Of a stretch of 64,000 bases of DNA, positions 2,901 to 64,000 are shown one piece after another; positions within the stretch are counted from its first letter, which is position 1, and every line of letters starts with the position of its first letter. This DNA comes from Octopus sinensis. Lineage: Eukaryota. Below the pieces are notes generated by a model. It saw only the letters and a program-made list of their open reading frames with translations, ran no database searches and was not told where the DNA came from. Position numbers and translations under genes: made by a program. The DNA is taken from NCBI RefSeq assembly GCF_006345805.1, contig NC_043019.1, positions 22,195,360-22,259,359 of the forward strand, given 5' to 3'.

Positions 2901-3799
2901 CTATTTGTATTTCAGTTAAATTCAGATATAAATCTCTGTATTTGTGTAATTTAAGTTTCTAGCAGTTCATGGTACTTTGGATGTATAGGGGGGTGTATAT
3001 ATAATTAGTAGGTTAGAGGTGTGTCGATGAATTATTATTACATGATCATAAGGTGGGGAGCTGACGGAATCATTAACATACCAGGCAAAATACTTTGCAG
3101 CATTTTGTCTGTCTTTGCTTTCTGAGTTCAAATTCTGCCAAGGTTGTCTTTACCTTTCGTCATTTTGGGATTGATGAAATAAGTACCAGTCAAGCACTGG
3201 GGTCGACTAGCCCCCTCCACCAAAATTTTATGACTTGTGCTTATAGTAGAAAGGAATACCGAGGCTGATATAATCAACTTTCCTGATCCTGCTGGCCTTG
3301 TGCCAAAATCTAAAACCATTATTATATGACCATGGATGGTCCAGCAAAATAGTTAATTTATCAAAGCTTTGGAACTAAAGATATCAGGAAAAAAAAAAAA
3401 AAAGAGAGATAGGTGCAGGAGTGGCTGTGTGGTAAGTAGCTTGCTAAACAACCACATGGTTCCGTGTTCAGTCCCACTGCATGGCATCTTGGGCAAGTGT
3501 CTTCTGCTATAGCCTCGGGCCGACCAATGCCTTGTGAGTGGATTTGGTAGACGGAAACTGAAAGAAGCCTGTCGTATATATGTATATATATATGTATGTG
3601 TGTGTATGTGTTTGTCCCCCTAGCATTGCTTGACAACCGATGCTGGTGTGTTTACGTCCCCGTCACTTAGTGGTTCGGCAAAAGAGACCGATAGAATAAG
3701 TACTGGGCTTACAAAGAATAAGTCCCGGGGTCGATTTGCTCAACATGTAAAGAGAGATGTACCTGTAACTGAATTCAAAAAGAATAAAAGTATTCTTAC

Positions 3800-8631: not shown

Positions 8632-9000
8632 TAAGGTAAGCGAGCTGGCACAATCATTAGCACATCGGATGAAATGCTTAGTGGTATTTCTTCTGCCGCT
8701 ACGTTCTGAGTTCAAATTCCACCGAGGTTGACTTTGTCTTTCCTCCTTTCGGGGTCGATTAAATAAGTACCAGTTACGCACTGGAGTCGATATAATCGAC
8801 TTAATCCGTTTGTCTGTCCTTGTTTGTCCCCTCTGTGTTTAGCCCCTTGTGAGTAGTAAAGAAACAGGTATTTCTTCTGGCTTTATGTTCAAATTCCGCT
8901 GATGTCGACTTTGCCTCTCACGCTCTCGGAATCGATAAGATAAGTACCAGTTGACCACTTGTCAATGTAATCGACTAGATTTTATGCCTATAAGTAGAAA
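8632..9000 (+). mobile_element. SINE with Nin/Deu-like domain (two partial copies; family also ~13755-14130 -, 42965-43130 -, 60515-60635 -)
   Basis: B-box GTTCAAATTCC followed by CCTTTCGGGGTCGAT..AAATAAGTACCAG domain; multiple dispersed copies. Confidence 0.65.
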
Positions 9001-12997: not shown

Positions 12998-14445
12998 GTA
13001 AGTATCAACATTATTTTTTTTACGTTACCTCTAAAGAAAGTGCTTATGTATATATATATATGCACATGTATATATAAGTACATACATACATACGCATGTA
13101 TACATACACACACACACACACACATATATATAAATAACCCCCCACGCAGATTATTAAAGCCTTGTAAGTGGAAGTGGTAAACGGAAATTGTCTATGTATG
13201 TATGTATGTCACCCACCCTATTCTTGTCAACCAACCGGTGTTGGTTTGTTTACGTCCCCGTAACTTAGCAGTTCGCCAAAATGACCTGCAGGACAAGTGC
13301 CAGACTTTTTTTTCGACTAAACTCTTCGAAAGTGGCTGCAGTCTTATAACTAAAACCAAGTTACATACATACACACGCTCTTAACGTATATTTTAGCTCA
13401 GAGATTGTGGTGTGTATAGGCAGTACCACCACAGTTTGATGCTTTAGCGACTTTGTTTCCACTTCACTTTCTAAAAAAAAAAAGAATGTATATTTTTAAA
13501 TGGCATATTTTAGAAATGCGTCTTCGAAAGTGTAGATTACCATTGTGATGAAGAAATGGAGAGAAAAACAAAAACAAAACATTTTTAAAGATATTCAGTT
13601 CTACCTTTAGTCGCTATTTGTTACCATTAGTTTCCGAAACTTAAGCATTTTCCACTTTTTTTTCCCAGGTTTGTATGTTTAAAACCTCAATACAATCATA
13701 ATCTATACGCCCGAAAACGTATTTCTACAAAATATTGTTTAAAAATATCCCCTTATTTCTTTATGGCCCACAAGGGGCTAAACGTAGAGGGGACAAACAA
13801 GGACTAAGTCGATTACATTGACCCTAGTGCGTAAGTGGTACTTAATTTATCGACCCCCAAAGGATGACCTCGGCAGAATTTGAACTCATAACGTAACGGC
13901 AGACGAAACACCTATTTCTTTACTACCCACAAGGGGCTAAACACAGAGGAGACAAACAGACGGATTAAGTCGATTATATCAACCCCAGTGCGTAACTGGT
14001 ACTTATTTAATCGACCCCGAAAGGATGAAATGCAAAGTCGACCTCGGCGGAATTTGAACTCAGAACGTAGCGGCAGACGAAATACCTCTGAGCATTTCGC
14101 CCGGCTTGCTAACGTGTCTGCCAGCTCGCCATTTAACATCCCCATTTAAAGAGAGTTATGAGGAAACCACTCCAGGTGATGGGAATTATGCACAACTTGA
14201 TGGGGGATCTCTTAGTGTTATCAACATAATCGTAATCCGCCATGTGCGCCTATATTTATATCTATTTATATTTATTTATTCATATCCTCTTATAATGATT
14301 GTACCTATTGTATTGTATTACTCATTCATGTACGCTGTTTTGTTTAACCTTAATGTTCTTATGTAGTGGTTCAATAAAGTATGTGATTGGGTATTATCTG
14401 ATAGTTGATTAATGATTTAGATGTATTTCTCCATTTTCTGATTTT

Positions 14446-42267: not shown

Positions 42268-43780
42268 CTTCAAAAAAAAAAAGCAAAAAATTTATAATAA
42301 TAATGTGTATTTATATTGTGTTGATATGACTGTTATATGTATATGTTTTTGTGTATAATTTAGATAAAAGCTATAGGTTGAATTCTCAAAAAGAAAAAAA
42401 AAAAAATCATGGAAAATATTCATTTAATTATTTTTTTTTGGTCTCTCATTCATATAAAATTTGTTACTCCTTAAAATTATTTTTGGTATTTTTTATCAAA
42501 ATTTTTCATTGTTTCTCAAAGAAGTTTTACTTCAGCAGCTGTCTTCTAAAAAGAAAAAGAAAAATTATAATAATAATAATGATAATAATAATAACAATAA
42601 TAAAACATTTGCTAATTTTTATTTTTATTTTTTTTATTATTTTTCTCATCCCTTTATCAGGTTGGAAAAAAAAAATGAGGTGAAATAACTTTACTCACTC
42701 GTGTACATCTATTAAAGGTTCGTTGTTGTTGTTTAAACGCACTCCCTTTCTTCAGGGTAGACTTGCGATTAAAGACGGTTTTGATTAACTATTTTGTCTT
42801 TTTTGCAGACAGTGATTTTAGAACATTACACACGTCCTATTTTTAGAGTCTAGGATTTGGTGCGAGTGAAAATTGGCTGCTATTTCTAGCGTATCGACCA
42901 TCCACATAGAACAAGAATCTGTAATGGCTCGATCTTTATATTTTGTTTTTGAATTAACCTATTCCTATTTCTTTATTACCCACAAGGGGCTAAACATAGA
43001 AGGGACAAACAAGGACAGACATAGGTATTAAGTCGATTACATCGACCCCGGTGCAGAACTGGTACTTAATTTATCGACCCCGAAAGGATGAAAGGCAAAG
43101 TCAACCTCAGCGGAATTTGAACTCACAACGTAATTCCATCATACCATACATCTAAGATATCCCTGTGTAAACCCCTTTGCCCATTCTCAATAATAGCAAT
43201 ACATATTTATCTTTTACTTGCACTAGTCATTGGATTGTGGCCATGCTGGGGCACCACCTTGAAGCTTTAGTTGAGTAAATCAACGTCAGTATTTTTTTTT
43301 AAGTCTGTCACTTGATGAACTGCTAAGTTACAAGGATGTAAGCAAAACAACATTCATTGTCAAGCAGTGGTGGGTCATAATCATAAAGACACTTGTCCAT
43401 ACAGGCATGTATATGTATATATATATCTATCTGTCTATCTGTCTGTCTAGTTGTGTATTAAGGTTACCTTTGGTTAAGAAAATATCTAAATATCTCAAGC
43501 TGATCACATGGAGGAGGAATGGTGTATGTGTGTGTGAATATATCATCATCATCGTTTAACGTCCGCTTTCCATGCTAGCACGGGTTAGACGGTTCAACTG
43601 GGGTCTGGGAAGCCTGAAGGCTGCACCAAGCCCGGTCAGATCTGGCAGTGTTTCTACAGCTGGATGCCCTTCCTAACGCCAACCACTCCGTGAGTGTAGT
43701 GGGTGCTTTTTACGTGCCAGACGAGGCTGGTGAACGGCCACGCTCGGATGGTGCTTTTTACGTGCCACACATATATATAT

Positions 43781-53918: not shown

Positions 53919-56900
53919 CCAAGTTTTGCTATATGCTTTAATAATATGGTATTTTTCTCTCATTGCATGGTTTCCACCTTGCCTTCATCCTTTTAACTTT
54001 CTCATTTTCATTCTTGCATCTGACATAATAACACCATTACTGTTTGCCAACACAAAAGTGGAGTAGGTTCTTTTTGTCTCTCATCACTGCTGCTGGATTT
54101 AACTACAAATGCATACACTATAATTCATTAATCTTATTCAAGACGAGTGGAAAAAAGCCAACAAGTAGAAGTGATGGTAGTAATGTGTAAAGAAATTGTA
54201 AAAGGATTAGAGAGAAAATCTCAGCCTCACTGGAAGACCATTAAAGCTTGTGATGTGTACAGTAGGAATAATACACAACAATAAATGATGAATTTATATC
54301 AAGCTAGCTAGAGGCGATGGCCTCTTGGAGCTAATCAACGACAGCTTTCGTCCTATATTTATGGACTGCCATGGACTATATTTATGGACTGCACTATGGG
54401 ATTCAATTGTTTCAAGACAGGGGCCATCAAAGGAAATTGTTTTTACAAAGTAAAACTGCTTGTGGGGCCTCTAAGAGAAAAGGTTTCTCAAAATCCAAGG
54501 GGACTATGATATATTTTTTTTAAGGAAGGGCCTATGAAACATTTACAAATCTTTCTTTGGTTCTTTGAGATGCAGACTGATGATTCAGTTGAACATCTCA
54601 ACCGTTAAAGGCTTTGTGGAGGGATATGGAGGAGCATACTTAAAGGGATGGTTTTCATTACTTGTTCAACTGCCTGAAATGGATATTCACAAAAGCACAT
54701 TCGCTGACTGCTCCAACTTGTTGGTTGACTTAAAGTAGCTTAAAAGGCTTCAGCAGACAGGTTGGGAGAAGGCATTGTACAGTATTTAGATGAGTGGGGT
54801 TTAACTAATAAGACAGTGGTCAAACAATGTAACAAATGTGGAGATGGTTTTGCAGAGGGTGGGGTTGAAAATGAAAAAAACCCCAAAAAAACACAAAAAT
54901 GTTTGCAATTTGTATGTACATTAACATGGTACTCACATTTGTTGTAAGTATTTGGACCAAGTTCCTCACAAGATATTCTTGCTGACATAATCTCAAGACA
55001 CCCTGGTAACACACCTTCACTCTGTTGAATGATTCAACCATAAAGTAACCTTAACCTTCTCAACAATTCTCTTTCCTCTGCTTAAAAATCTATGAGCACC
55101 AGCTCAACCTAGATTCTTCCTCATACATATCACCACCTCCTAGCACATAAGCCACATGCCTTGTTCCTCCCAGAGGACACCAATCTTACATCTTATATAT
55201 ATGCTGTACATACTACACTTGATGCAAATCTTCACTTTGAAAGGTGGTATCTTTATTTCTGGCAATTCCACTCTACCCACTGTTCACTTCATACTTACCT
55301 GGATACTAGTAACAAGGAATTCCAAGTACTCTGGCTCAAGATCTCTGAGCTCCCTCTTGCAACTCTTCTAAATATATCTGCATCCACTTCTGTTCTCTGA
55401 AGTCTTCCAACCACCAACAACCTTTCGACCTCATCTCTTCATGCATCCAGTACACATCTCTCACTTCATCCCTCTCTGTCTACCTGAAGACTTTATCCTC
55501 AATTAACTTCAGTACTCACAACTCTTCTAGTACTCATCCCCACACTGATGCTTCCAAGGAAGAAGCAGGCTTTAATTCTTTACAATGATTACTTATACAT
55601 CCTACACACATGTATCAGACCAACACAGACACTTTAATCTGAACATACTTGATCTCTTTCCCAAACCTCATCTTTAATGAACCACTGCTGTCTATACCTC
55701 TGTTAGATCATCCGACCAATGCCTTATCTCAACTCCCCACCTTGCTTCCCAATATTCTGAAGCACCTGTCACCCCTTGGACCCTATGGTACTTCAAGATT
55801 GATAGTATCTCTGCCAGTTGTATGCTAACAGTAACACAGTTGTAAGCCCAGTAACACATGAGTGTCACCTATGAACCATCAGAAACAGTTAACCCTTTTC
55901 CTCTCCTGTGCATCACATGTGTAAGGTGGTTGGTATTAAGAAGGGCATCCAGCCATAAAAACCACACTAAAACAGACAGTGAAGCCTGGTGCAGTCTTCT
56001 GCCTAGCCAGCTCCTGTCAGACCATCTAACCCATGCCAGCATGGAAAACTGACGTTAAACAATGATGATGATGATGATAACATTGCCAATTTTTTACAAC
56101 CACCAGAGTGACTTGGAACCTATCTAAAGGAAAGTTTTATGTTTCTCAGAACATATGAAAAAAAAAAAGGCTAACTAAATGTCTGCAAAACGTGCACAAA
56201 CATTTAGGAAATACTTATGAAAATACTTTGGACAGGCAAAGAATTAAGCTAGTGCCTAAGGTTATCCTCACACAACTTATTGTGCAATCTAAAGATACCT
56301 TATCTGAAGGTGTTATTCAGTATAAACTTGCCTGTAAACAATACTATGATGTGTGACAAAAGTCAGAAAAACTTAACAACCCCCTTGAACGATTTCCTTT
56401 ATCATCAGGGTAGGAAGTGCTAAAGGCAAAAGTTATGTTTCTTTTATAGTAGAATGATTAATTTAGTTCACTGTTGTTTGTTTCTTTGCTTCTGTTTTTT
56501 GGGTCAGTCAGACAGTTTCTGCAATAATTTTAAAATTCCTTTATGTTGGTAACAAGGAATTTACCGTTTTGATCTGCATAGTTTACAGTAGATGTTTTTG
56601 TGACATAGACAACACAATCAAAGCTCATACCTCAACTCCCATCCCATTACTCAAGTTGTAACTGTGTTGCAGTAAGTTGAGTAAAGAAGACAGCATACAA
56701 TACTTGGTAAAAAAAAAAAAAAATCAACCACCACATCACAATAAATTGGATGGCTTTTATCCCCACCATAACATATACAAAGCCATATTTCAAAAATAAT
56801 GGAGATGTCTCTGTGCATCACATACTCCGCAAGCTCTCCTGTTTCCTAGAATGTTGCTCATTCTCTGCTGACTTCCCAGAATAATCCCTCCATCTATTTT

Positions 56901-58060
56901 TGAACTACAATGGCTTAATAGAAATATTCCTGCAGAGAAAACTTCTGTATTTACTCCGTGCTTTGCATCCAGCTACACACACAATATAAATATTTTCCTT
57001 TACTTCACCAGTTTTATTGCTTCAAGCTAGCAAAGCCACCAGCCATATCAATGTCCCTTATTCTACTTGCAATAAGTGCTCCCCAGAGCTCTCCCAACAT
57101 TTCAAAATGTTTCAACACCCCACTCTCTCATTCTCCTCTCTCTCTCTCTCATACACACACACACAGAGTCTTCTCTTTCTATGGATCTATCAATTTACTC
57201 CTTTTATGAAAACATGCTATAGTGAAGTCACGGGTAAACTATGGCCCATGGACTGCAGGACTTGCCAACAAAAAATTATTTTGAATCTTATAATTAGTGT
57301 GCGCTGCCTGAAAATGAATCATTTCTGATGCAGCTGCTTCTCAAAAAAGACTGCCCATGCCTATAGTGTGTCCCATTTCCAATGGGAAACAATTTCTCTT
57401 ACCCTGACTATGGCTCTCACTACAAAAATTTCAAAGATGATAGAAACAATCAACTTTGAGTCATCAGCTTATTTTATCTCCTTTCACTCTTCAATGACCA
57501 CCATAAAGCCAGGTTCACTGGGGGAATATCCTTTGTTTCACTTACAAATGTGATCTCTTCTTTGAAAAATTTAATTTTTTCTCGAAAAATTTTATTCTAC
57601 ATTAGATATATATATAAGATTCGGTGATACAATCAGAAGTAGAACTCAATACGCAAAATAGAGCATATATATTTCTTTATTATTCATCTGTAAGACTATC
57701 AATGGATTTGGTAAGTACGAACGTACGGAGCTTAATACACACACATACAAACCCTAGAGAGTGAAAATCTAGACGTTTTCCTTAATTACTTCCCTTATAA
57801 GCAACTCTTACTTTAATGGTTGGTATATCAGTTGTATTAATAAAGAAAACATTTGGACTTGAAATAAAATAGTTGTTGGCATTCATCGTCATGTGGGACG
57901 ATTCTACACAGCTGATATACTGTGCGTGGGACATCGACGACGACAGATATATCAATATTTGAATCCCTTGTTTACTGTTATAGCCGGCCGGTGTATCTTA
58001 AAACCTTTTCCCTTCTGATTCGACAGACAAAACGAAAATGCAGAACGGACTGGACAACGA

Positions 58061-58142
<82 letters not shown>

Positions 58143-58454
58143 CGCATGCGCATTCTTTAGATGAAAGTAGCAAGTGTGTCAAAATGACCACTTTTGTTTT
58201 CATGTCAAGAATGCCATATATATATCTTTGGGCTATTCTCTGTGGCATCTTGCTGGCAAAACACAAAACAAAAAAATGATGGTGAGCTGGTAGAATCGTT
58301 AGCATACCGAGCAAACTGCATAGCGGCATTTTGTGTGTCTTTATATTCTGAGTTCTAATTCTGCCGAGCACTGGGTCCATGTAATCGACTTACTCCCTCC
58401 TCCTGAAATTACTGGCATTGTGCCGAAATGTGAGAACTAAACTTAATCATTAAG

Positions 58455-59630
58455 CGGGGTCTGGCTCGGGTTAATATCCCCTCAGTTATGGAGCCGGTGG
58501 GATAATCCAGAAGTGATGGGAAGAGACCAGATGATCTTACCCTCTGTCTCTGGGTAAGGGGTAGGTGCTTCGTCTGGGACGTCGCAGTCTGTGACCTTTT
58601 TTCTCCCTCCCACATCCTGGTTGCTGCGGTAAATGGAAGGGTCACAGCTTCCGTCGCCGAACGGAACAAAACCCTGGAGTAACGGAGGGGCAACAGCTAA
58701 GAGTAGGTATTGCAGCTGGATGCACAATATTAGTCATCCTATTTGTGCTAGTCATGGAGATGTCACTAAGATCAACAATCTGTGAGAAAGCTGTTACAAT
58801 GACACTATTAAGGGCTTTTATGGACATTACTGTATTATCAGAAAGTAGAGAAGCAGCAGATGGAACGTTAGAGCGGTTGGACGGGTTAATAGGATGGGTG
58901 AGAATGAAATTCAAAGTCAAGAAATCTTGAAGTGTGACATTCATGATAGGAGTCCAAAAAGAAGTGAAGTTCAGGATATGAGACGAAGAAATACCAATGG
59001 TGAAAGAACACTCTATAAAAGGTCTTGGCAGATGGTACAGTGATTTATTAAATGATAAGAAGCAAGGCAAAGAAACACGAATTAGTGGAACAGGGACTAG
59101 AGGCAATTGACAGAACAACATTACCGGGGAAATTCAAATGCTGGATACTGCAATTTGGACTGTACCCAAGGATTATATAGCTATTGTGAATGTATAAAAT
59201 AGCCTCGAATAGAGTAGAAAGGATGGAACAAAGACGCAGTGTATTGATCAGAAAATGGCTTGGTCTTCCAAAACCGCAGAATACAACTGCACTATATGGA
59301 AAACCCGTGCTGCAAGTAACAATAACATCAATCGTCGAAGAAAATAAGGACGGAAGGAAAGGCGAGGACAGTAATGGCGCTAAGGTATTCGAAAGATCAG
59401 AACATCCGAGAAAACCCTCCAGAGGTACGAACAGGGAAGAAATGGAAAGCGGAGGAAGCAGTAAACTGCGATAGGAAAGTGAAGGAATGCTAGTATAGAA
59501 GAAGCAAAAGCCGGTCTAGGGTTGCAAAATTTCAAACCATTTTGCATGAGCAGTGTAAAAGAGATGAAGGAGTAGATGAGTAGGGGCCGAAACCGGATGT
59601 GCTTCCTCCTGATGATATCCTTAGCCACTG
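58455..59630 (+). mobile_element. Internally deleted HERO-like (RLE-type) non-LTR retrotransposon
   Basis: VGIAAGCTI..ILFVLVMEM, LRAFMD, WVRMKFKVKKS, IPMVKEHSIKGLGRWY, LPGKFKCWILQFGLYPR, RKWLGLP, RTGKKWKAEEAV, KAGLG; stops and frameshifts; GC-rich structured 5' segment. Confidence 0.8.
59572..59623 (+). ncRNA. Rearranged-order hammerhead-like module 1
   Basis: GTA-GATGAG-taggggcc-GAAA-CCGgatgtgc-TTCCTC-CTGATGA-taTCCTTA. Confidence 0.45.
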
Positions 59631-59777
59631 GATCCTAAAAAGGAGTTGTTGAGTTAAAGAACCACGAAACGTGATTGGAGTTTTCCTTGTATCTTGATAC
59701 ATTTTGTGTTGCAAGACACTTGCAGATTCAGGTGTTACCAGTTGAAAGCTCAGCATACCGGATGCTAGCAAGTTTAT

Positions 59778-59828
59778 GGGGTCATCAGGAGAGAATGCGT
59801 ACCGTTTCGGGGCCTTCCTCTCGATGGC
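59778..59828 (-). ncRNA. Rearranged-order hammerhead-like module 2
   Basis: GCC-ATC-GAGAG-gaaggcccc-GAAA-CGGT-acgcatt-CTCTC-CTGATGA-cccc. Confidence 0.5.
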
Positions 59829-60332
59829 GTCATTGCGTACGGGCCTTGCTTACTGAAACGAAGCCCCGTTAGCTAGATCAACTTGATGGAGTACTATTTT
59901 GTCAATCTTACCTTAAGGCACGAACCACATTGATGGGTTTAGTCGAACATAGCAACTCCTGTGTTTACTTTTTAGTCTAGTTCTAATTCGTTCGAACTCG
60001 TGTGCGCAACCGCCAGGTAATAAGGACGTAAGCAAACCAACACTGGTTGTCAAGAGATAAACACACACTATCACTCACCCCCATACATACATACACGCGC
60101 ACGCTCAACGGGCTTTCACACACTTTCCATCTTTCAGAAGATATTGATTGGCTCATGGCTATAGTAGAAGAAACTTACTCAGTGTGCTGCGCTGTGGAAC
60201 TTAACCCAAGACCATAAGGTTGTTGGGAATCAGGTTTCTTGACCACACAGCCAAGAGTTTCAACACACGAGATTCTCGGTCCTTGAGCTCATGCGTAACG
60301 ACTACAGATTATTCTTTTCTATTCTAGGCACA

Positions 60333-60513
60333 TTGGTATTGGTATTGGCGTCCTTTCTGTCTCGGGAGACAATGGAGTTGCGCATGAAGTAGTCTAGTCC
60401 GGCTTTTATATTTCATGTCCTGATACATTTCCTGCTGTGGCTGTGTAGTCCTATCCAACTAGTTTCGGGATTGTTGTCCCTCGTCAACGGGCGGTAACCA
60501 CCATGTAACCACC
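60333..60513 (-). mobile_element. Chimeric retro-insertion: hammerhead-bearing head + RTE 3' end, (AATACC)n tail
   Basis: 12-bp TSD ATTCTAGGCACA/ACTCTAGGCACA (60321-60332, 60514-60525); IGLHSHSRKC and GCGCAACTCCATTGTCTCCCGAGAC RTE terminus; TTGACGA-GGGA(caacaa)TCCC-GAAA-CTAG-TT head. Confidence 0.75.
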
Positions 60514-61199
60514 ACTCTAGGCACAAGGCCCGAATTTTTTGGGAAGTGAGCCAGTCGATTAGATCAATCCAGTATGCAAACTGGTACTTAACTTATCGAC
60601 CCCGAAATGATGAAAGGCAAAGTCCTCGGCGGAACGACTATCGATTATTGATAAAATAATGTATACTTATGTTTTGAGTCTTATTTTCCTATTTGCATCA
60701 CCACACACACACACGCACGCGCGCACACACACACACATGCGCGCGCGCGTGTGTGTATATAAATACATGTATAGATAACCTACCTTTTGCGTCACCCCCG
60801 CCCCTATACTGTCACCCGTTATTTGCACTAATATAAATTAATTTATTTCTAATTGTTACAATCGATAGCACTTTCGAATTGCGGTAATTAATCAGTTTTG
60901 GAAGGCGGGTTATGAGGGGGGATGGGCAGGAGATGTGAATTATACGAGTTAAATATATTGTTAAAAAAGAAATAGAAGTGCAATCGAAAATATTGACTGC
61001 TGCTTTTCCCAGGTTTAATTACATCATCATCATCATCATCACCATCTATGCATGTGTATGTATACATATATACATATGCGTATACGCACGCACACACACA
61101 ACACACATGCATATATATGCAATTTATTACGGGTTATGACTCGTAACTGGCCCGAACGAGTTTTTATTTCTGACTTACGGACAAAAAGATTGATATTTA

Positions 61200-62950
<1,751 letters not shown>

Positions 62951-62954
62951 AAAC

Positions 62955-63274
62955 ATGGCGACTCAGTTTGCAGACGACGGTGGTTCGGCAAAGAGCAGTT
63001 TCGTTATCTTGGACCTTGAGGTGGATGCCGATAGTTTACTATCTTCATCGCCATCGTCATTATCTCCTTGTCTGTTGTGTTGTTGCGCTCGACACATGAT
63101 GATGGTGGACAGGAAGAAGACGAACAACAAGGAGGAGAGTAACTGCAAGAGCATCAGCAAGAAGGAAGAGATCTCCCTTTATAGGGACCATGAGATCCCG
63201 GACTTCCTAAGGATCAACCGCCACATTGTGCGGGGCTATAGGTCCCTCCTACCCGTCCATCTCTGTCTCAAAAG
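62955..63274 (+). CDS. PAQR3: PAQR3 (progestin and adipoQ receptor 3) first coding exon
   Basis: ISLYRDHEIPDFLRINRHIVRGYRSLLPVHLCLK(S) resembles PAQR3 IRLYTYEQIP..NPYITDGYRAYLPSRLCIKS; aaacATGGCG start; phase-2 donor AG|GTAACC. Confidence 0.85.
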
Positions 63275-63291
63275 GTAACCGTCCGAATTAT

Positions 63292-63383
63292 AATACATAC
63301 ATACATTTGTATATGCATTTGTATATGCATATGTTTATACATACATATATACATACATACATTTGTATATGCATGTCTATACA

Positions 63384-63415
<32 letters not shown>

Positions 63416-63775
63416 AACATACATACATACATACATTTGTATATGCATATGTCTATACATACATATATACATACATACATACATACATACATTTGTATAT
63501 GCATATGTTTATACATACATATATACATACATACATACATAGATACATATATACATACATACATACATACATTTGTATATGCATATGTTTATACATACAT
63601 ACATACATACATATATACATACATACATTTGTATATGCATATGTTTATACATACATATATACATACATACATCATACATACATACATACATACATACATT
63701 TGTATATGCATATGTTTATACATACATACATACATACATATGTATATGTACTTATGTTTATACATATGTATATAA
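63292..63775. repeat. (ACAT)n satellite with recurring TTGTATATGCATATGTTT spacer
   Basis: Higher-order units directly visible in PAQR3 intron 1. Confidence 0.9.
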
Positions 63776-63860
63776 ATATATTCATACACAGTTTCTTTCT
63801 CTCTCACAAACACACTCTCTCTATATATGTGATGACGATGATGATGATGATGAATGGTTT

Positions 63861-63892
<32 letters not shown>

Positions 63893-64000
63893 TGTAGGTG
63901 AACTTGCTGTAATCAACGACCTCCGATACTAAAAACCAAAAGAAAAACGGTAGGGGCCATTTAGAGACGATGTGGATACATTTATTTTTATTCTTTTTTA

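Follow-up and report, generated by a model that had tools for sequence, protein, structure and literature searches.

Two retrotransposon copies lie tail to tail on opposite strands of the window analyzed here, a 64,000-nucleotide stretch of the Octopus sinensis genome (NC_043019.1, positions 22,195,360 to 22,259,359). On the plus strand, positions 58649..59571 hold a reverse transcriptase (RT)-coding remnant of a 5'-truncated, decayed HERO-like retrotransposon with a restriction-like endonuclease (RLE), which belongs to a group of copies that we designate family A. By tblastn, positions 58649-59466 translate to RT residues 538-813 of homologue P0002 with 50-65% identity, and by blastn the remnant matches full-length family A copies at 82%. 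Copies are numerous in the 2.7-Gb genome, where 40 of 40 scored matches, drawn from 755 candidates, were of this element. A second copy, from family B, occupies 59709..59883 on the minus strand, about 100 bp from the family A motif described below, and carries a complete, slightly decayed ribozyme with GAAA at 59808-59805, CUGAUGA at 59788-59782, and a predicted cut after 59823. The two copies are about 23 bp apart (59686-59709), with a short palindrome-like stretch between them that may reflect chance or insertion beside an earlier copy. Directly upstream of the family A remnant, a decayed plus-strand frame at 58480-58690 has a PD...W-D-V-x-V-x-D pattern and resembles what we take to be the endonuclease end of a different RLE-type retroelement. 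Elsewhere in the window, a plus-strand exon-like stretch between long microsatellites (63100-63278) ends in a frame resembling the beginning of a gene for a membrane protein, and an abundant short repeat family occurs at 3049-3258, 8639-8976, 13752-14130, 42962-43133, 58281-58368, and 60515-60634; the same repeat family was found in the flanks of many element loci.

The element, with a unit length of 3.6-3.9 kb, encodes a single open reading frame (ORF) with an N-terminal zinc finger, an RT, a C-terminal CCHC finger, and an RLE. The RT domain was detected as PF00078 on homologues, and the zinc-finger and PD-(D/E)xK-like labels are presumptive assignments made by eye. A Pfam search with the C-terminal 425 amino acids returned no match, and the nearest solved relatives of the host protein are R2 proteins. 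Because 3' flanks are unrelated across copies, insertion appears to be mostly nonspecific. The HERO label of the earlier sequence-only reading presumably applies to the element, which is likened here to HERO through published descriptions. HERO elements are described as having a single ORF with zinc fingers, RT, and RLE, as inserting largely without specificity, and as having named members in lancelet, pufferfish, sea urchin, and leech (PMC4640811, PMC7650587). The ORF layout and loose targeting of the octopus element and the hosts of its protein matches resemble these descriptions, consistent with the initial proposal that the host is an RT- and RLE-encoding LINE of this kind. A ribozyme, a tandem layout, and a circular template are absent from the HERO descriptions in the portions of these papers available to us.

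The sequence-only reading had placed a hammerhead core at the 3' end of the family A copy, and upon rereading the sequence we found all of its boxes at those plus-strand positions. The block S triplet G16.2-U16.1-A17 is GUA at 59572..59574, with NUH kept in relatives, and the hammerhead core predicts a cut between 59574 and 59575. The stem I 5' strand (59575..59580) forms five of six pairs, as first described, with a copy-specific mismatch at 59577 that undeleted family A copies repair to give six of six. The stem II 3' strand, ending in C11.1, follows at 59583..59588, and the G12-A13-A14-A15.1 box with the stem III 5' strand spans 59589..59595 (GAAAC at 59589-59593). Next come the 3' strand of a helix that ties together the far ends of stems I and II (59596..59602), equivalent to the "I" interaction helix of type-SGC hammerheads, and a segment at 59603..59615 containing the stem I 3' strand (59603-59608) and the CUGAUGA box (59609-59615). 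The 3' strand of an extra closing helix, which we term helix X and which was initially taken for part of stem II, lies at 59616..59621. Outer stems and a terminal hairpin (59622..59686) complete the copy up to the family A insertion end, approximately +112 from the predicted cut.

As also proposed at the outset, an internal deletion fuses coding sequence to the untranslated region (UTR) in this copy. Positions 58681-59572 are RT-coding DNA and 59572-59670 are UTR that an undeleted copy carries about 1,250 nt farther downstream, so that matches stop at about 59572 and resume there, placing the junction of the ~1.25-kb deletion at 59571..59572. The deletion removed the ORF end, the 5' strand of helix X, a hairpin designated H, and the 5' strands of stem II and the interaction helix, together with most of the 3' strand of stem III. 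The window copy is thus the dead half of a ribozyme and cannot fold stems II and III. A loose descriptor of the motif matched twice in the window compared to 0.33 times per shuffled window (40 shuffles), and a strict descriptor gave no match in the window because both copies are decayed. Folding-energy z-scores were +0.2 (+0.21) for the window copy, -0.8 for family B, and -3.4 for family A, all from single-strand folding that cannot represent the pseudoknots of the motif. An Rfam scan of window positions 54000-64000 found no hammerhead match and returned only microsatellite-driven miRNA noise.

Comparison of families A and B settled the wiring of the intact fold. The order of the core, cut site (block S), GAAA (block G), and then CUGANGA (block C), was claimed from the window copy to be noncircular, and this order held in undeleted copies and in relatives. 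The stem III complement upstream of GUA, whose absence had been named beforehand as grounds for abandoning the hammerhead interpretation, is present in undeleted copies. What did not survive was the proposed stem II, in which the strand after CUGAUGA pairs with the strand before GAAA beyond a 2x2 loop. This pairing is not conserved: just 6 of the 34 sequences form its first pair (10.1-11.1), and the two strands are both C rich in family B and cannot pair there. In both families, the strand before GAAA has its partner about 20 nt upstream of the cut, the letters of the pairs being swapped between A and B, and the strand after CUGAUGA pairs with a strand further upstream to form helix X. Hairpin H fills the gap between these two upstream strands with zero spare bases. 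Letter swaps between the families occur in stems I, II, III, and X. The full strand order is X, hairpin H, stem II 5', interaction helix 5', a bulge or kink-turn, stem III 3', H17, stem I 5', a linker of 2-5 nt, stem II 3', GAAA, stem III 5', interaction helix 3', stem I 3', CUGANGA, and X'.

This arrangement would place a four-way junction of the core, X, H, and stem II at A9/G10.1. Read as a circle, the fold would have type-SGC connectivity opened between A9 and G10.1, with the opening closed by X and H. We also considered whether an upstream CUGAAGA in family A belonged to a second hammerhead, but these bases are the helix X partner strand and by eye no stem I forms. Separately, in an alignment of L033-L060, a G run over hairpin H and the stem II 5' strand, at about -28 to -14 from the cut, is a hot spot for indels and substitutions in both families, possibly due to RT slippage on entering the four-way junction.

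We analyzed conservation of the motif beyond octopus. The C-terminal ORF of family B has 151 protein relatives, with fish, lancelets, lamprey, and mussel among their names, and an alignment of 26 of these proteins was used to fetch metagenome loci, the best 80 of 388 of which were examined. GAAA...CUGANGA was present beside the ORF in 35 of these 80 loci. Among the rest, 16 had less than 200 nt downstream, and by eye one contained a longer insert and two had a decayed C box; the strict motif was absent in 20 more distant loci with more than 300 nt downstream. Searched viral contigs contained no relative. Several loci of the hammerhead-less distant relatives (L164, L172, L184, L188, L190, L191, and L196, and L167, L168, L173, L175, and L195) have in common other conserved blocks in the UTR, located 100-330 nt after the ORF and with apparent hairpins. 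These blocks, which had no Rfam match in the loci scanned, may form some other structured RNA or ribozyme with an equivalent role.

After removal of the near-duplicates L128, L150, and L159, the remaining 32 distinct metagenomic sequences and one copy each of families A and B formed a nonredundant set of 34, in which three misparsed loci were kept and counted as misses. Helices of at least 4 bp formed in 31 of 34 sequences for stem I and in 29 for stem III. The corresponding numbers were 29 for stem II with its upstream partner, 31 for X, and 29 for the interaction helix, to be read against a high single-helix chimera null in which 37-46% reach 4 bp for these three helices. All five helices reached 4 bp in 21 of 34 sequences, compared to 1.3% of 1,122 chimeras passed through the same parser, and stems I, II, and III all did so in 24 of 34, compared to 2.9% of chimeras. 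In this procedure the C and G boxes served as search anchors, upstream partners were picked by best pairing, and the parser excluded G at H17.

Stems I and III, for which covariation had been suggested as a check, do covary in the 34 sequences. Pair 1 of stem I is represented by six pair types, and pair 15.2-16.2 is C-G in 29 sequences and U-A in 3, corresponding to GUH or AUH, the rule for natural hammerheads. GAAA, CUGA, and GA are invariant in 22 aligned sequences, so the core boxes, whose loss would have counted against the earlier interpretation, are conserved. Because the MAFFT alignment of these 22 motifs is not structure true outside the boxes, pair counts were taken from anchored parses. 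All hammerhead core letters are present (CUGANGA, GAAA, A15.1-U16.1, and NUH). In 13 of 34 sequences, stem III and the interaction helix are linked through a strict kink-turn pattern, with other bulge sizes in 1-7 of 34 and a no-bulge control in 7 of 34; families A and B lack the kink-turn and instead have a 5- to 6-nt bulge on the other strand. Rfam gave no hammerhead match in 14 motif-bearing loci and no match in 20 loci without the strict motif. Considering conservation and covariation together, the motif is almost certainly a conserved hammerhead-type fold.

Eckert et al. (2023) divided the hammerhead core into blocks S, G, and C with a six-permutation scheme and validated type SGC in vitro with HRIMA-1 and variants (PMC10085705). 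In the portions of that paper available to us, type-SGC motifs have a short linker between stems I and II and a helix that connects these stems on their other sides, and block C is assumed to be uninterruptible. Type SGC and similar motifs are reported there outside known organisms' genomes, with the exception of one GCS candidate. The HERO-like motif resembles type SGC in its S > G > C order, short stem I-II linker, interaction helix continuous with stem III, and possession of all core letters. It differs in that the strand after CUGANGA, which in type SGC is the stem II 5' strand with the RNA ends outside, goes into helix X; block C is split, with the 5' strand of stem II located upstream of the cut, and hairpin H is added to give a four-way junction. 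By its sequence, we regard the motif as a circularly permuted, split form of the type-SGC hammerhead that lacks one defining feature of the type, an uninterrupted block C. It does not belong to hammerhead types I-III, which have the order S > C > G and no core pseudoknots. No description of a HERO-like split hammerhead was found in the open-access literature searched (Repbase Reports and subscription journals lay outside this scope), and the accessible portion of PMC10162972 contains no such hammerhead variant.

We then mapped where copies begin and end relative to the predicted cut. The motif had been proposed to act in 3' processing, but copies always extend beyond the predicted cut by about 112-120 nt and the long ones reach the 5' UTR. 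Since copies continue past it, the cut does not set the 3' end of the insertion, and the ribozyme is not simply a 3' UTR element. The 109 family B loci selected with the C-terminal protein gave 102 matches, 96 of which ended at +118 to +125; one ran on. The next two to four flank bases matched the continuation of the element itself at frequencies of 0.48-0.85 compared to a background of 0.24 (family B; n = 89), as expected if the template continues past the priming site, although ragged priming would look alike.

Among loci picked only by the 5' UTR or N terminus, 23 of 30 in family A were preceded seamlessly by ribozyme, 3' UTR, and ORF end, with some being duplicates of one insertion. Of independent family B insertions picked in this way, 11 of 23 were preceded seamlessly by ribozyme and the other 12 start at +66 to +285. 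The 5' ends range widely, from -860 to +285, with +1 unrepresented and no accumulation at +119, and no starts at the cut occurred among 30 family A and 30 family B copies picked by the 3' half. As a separate observation, some single insertions have been multiplied together with their flanks on C18 of G000 and on small contigs (L244, L247, L252, L257, L258, L260, L261, and L263) and likewise on C27 (L221-L223, L230, L233, L234, and L238), representing segmental duplications or tandem gene arrays.

Two ribozymes were present in 16 of 34 long loci, in 10 of these one full unit apart, and none had three. The long loci contain terminal repeats of 115-986 nt and long copies span 1.0-1.26 units, with no dimers of at least two full units among the 34. 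L203 is continuous from the ribozyme to the N-terminal zinc finger; L202 is a head-to-tail dimer with a deletion. The head-to-tail order also occurs in four metagenome contigs, and one contig has the motif before the ORF; the motif of run-on copies precedes the ORF start by about 250-400 nt. In contig L129, sequence starts a single base beyond the predicted cut, a position that could reflect either a linear template with this start or a break in the assembly.

The families disagree on changes at the cut itself. H17 is changed in 4 of 134 family B copies (background, 3.3%) and in 8 of 72 family A copies compared to 2.6% (P ~6e-4 before correction). In 137 family B copies, neither indels nor substitutions are in excess at the cut, and several family A deletions, including that of the window copy, end no more than 8 nt upstream of the cut. 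Variants common to both repeats of one insertion numbered 7 in L318, compared to 0 and 2 private variants, and 0-1 in five other family B loci, counts that fit either a circle or subfamily identity.

These observations are best explained, with somewhat better than even confidence, by a model in which the rewired hammerhead likely cuts RNA to units that are likely joined into circles and copied by the RT from a fixed internal site. Judged from its sequence, the motif probably self-cleaves, and we lean toward a covalent circle as the template. In this model, read-through RNA from long copies would hold two ribozymes, and double cleavage would free a unit-length monomer. Four helices that cross the cut (X, II, interaction helix, and III) would clamp the monomer ends, and ligation by the ribozyme or by an RtcB-type ligase would close the circle. 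Target-primed reverse transcription would start at a fixed site about 112-120 nt past the cut and cross the joint after about 115 nt, and an RT overshooting one lap would regenerate a two-ribozyme source. We favor a circular template because it explains the fixed 3' ends, the seamless joint of ORF, ribozyme, and 5' UTR, and the scattered 5' ends with none at the cut. If a linear template were cut at its 5' end, starts at +1 would be expected, and a linear template running from +119 with end-to-end jumps should give starts at +119 and untidy joints, none of which was seen.

The model has a precedent in animal retrozymes, which circularize by double cleavage and RtcB (PMC7229834). Non-LTR retrozymes and Penelope-like elements likewise carry hammerheads in animal retroelements with tandem or terminally repeated copies, and double cleavage and circular RNA have been shown there, with RtcB ligating far better than self-ligation (PMC7229834; bioRxiv 10.64898/2026.07.22.740005). 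Those ribozymes are canonical type I hammerheads in noncoding units of 170-400 nt or in Penelope pseudo-LTRs, whereas the HERO-like element is an autonomous RT- and RLE-encoding LINE of 3.6-3.9 kb with a permuted hammerhead and a putative circle suggested by genomic copies. Several considerations weigh against the circle. An active ribozyme would reopen it, family B has no ligation scar at the cut, and multilap copies were not seen. Activity itself is not guaranteed, since the four-way junction at A9/G10.1 breaks the assumption that block C is uninterruptible (PMC10085705).

Other explanations share parts of this model. Cleavage may occur with the template being a linear unit-length RNA, its ends held by the fold as a nicked circle whose nick the RT jumps. 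R2-type RTs jump templates end to end, which provides a precedent, and the four helices crossing the cut, the H17 substitution excess and cut-proximal deletions of family A, and the start of L129 are all consistent with a nick. If a 5' end lay free about 115 nt from the priming site, many short copies starting at +1 would nonetheless be expected, and none was seen in 60; the unscarred cut of family B also argues against a nick, making this version unlikely. The ribozyme might instead make the 5' end of a linear template from upstream read-through, with the downstream ribozyme copy left uncut. This would parallel the HDV-like ribozyme of R2, also a self-cleaving RNA in an RLE LINE that frees the template from read-through RNA (PMC13580325), and would fit the position of the motif ahead of the ORF in run-on copies. 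From what is accessible of that source, the R2 ribozyme is of another class and its cut sets the template 5' end, whereas HERO-like insertions neither start nor end at the cut. Full-length copies made in this way should start at +1, but 0 of 23 independent family B insertions do and 11 extend upstream of the cut, so we consider this explanation very improbable.

It is also quite unlikely that the fold is hammerhead derived but uncut in vivo, acting as a protein-binding signal that sets the priming site, with head-to-tail copies arising from read-through of preexisting tandems. In both families the priming site does follow the fold at a constant short distance on its 3' side, the sequence runs seamlessly across the cut site, and cleavage is a prediction from sequence. 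A binding signal, however, has no need to keep every catalytic letter and NUH across proteins whose similarity is only 28-60%. Linear tandem sources would also yield less overshoot with each generation, yet overshoot is seen in both families and in distant relatives. A role in RT recognition, as the sequence-only reading had suggested, is possible for the motif as a rival or additional function. Finally, a chance juxtaposition of hammerhead boxes in a decayed repeat could account for the window fragment considered alone, which is within chance reach and folds no better than shuffles, but conservation and covariation in the 34 nonredundant sequences refute this explanation, leaving it with a vanishingly small probability and the window motif as more than chance.

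On the literature searched, the motif would be the first noncircularly permuted hammerhead in the genomes of known organisms. Its wiring would fall outside the six-permutation scheme of Eckert et al. and show that the A9-G10.1 link can be opened, and the family offers thousands of natural variants for structural work and circular-RNA engineering. A circular template would explain why full-length copies run past their own start. If the circle model is true, a LINE RT copies circular mRNA from an internal site, which would bear on 5'-end protection of non-LTR elements and on retrotransposon-based gene-insertion tools. We give about even chances to the broader proposal that an autonomous LINE lineage replicates through a circular mRNA of about 3.7 kb, with internal RT priming, no true 5' or 3' end, and a hammerhead whose new topology combines a split block C, a four-way junction, and often a kink-turn. 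If true, this proposal would overturn the rule of a linear template and 3'-end priming for a whole non-LTR clade.
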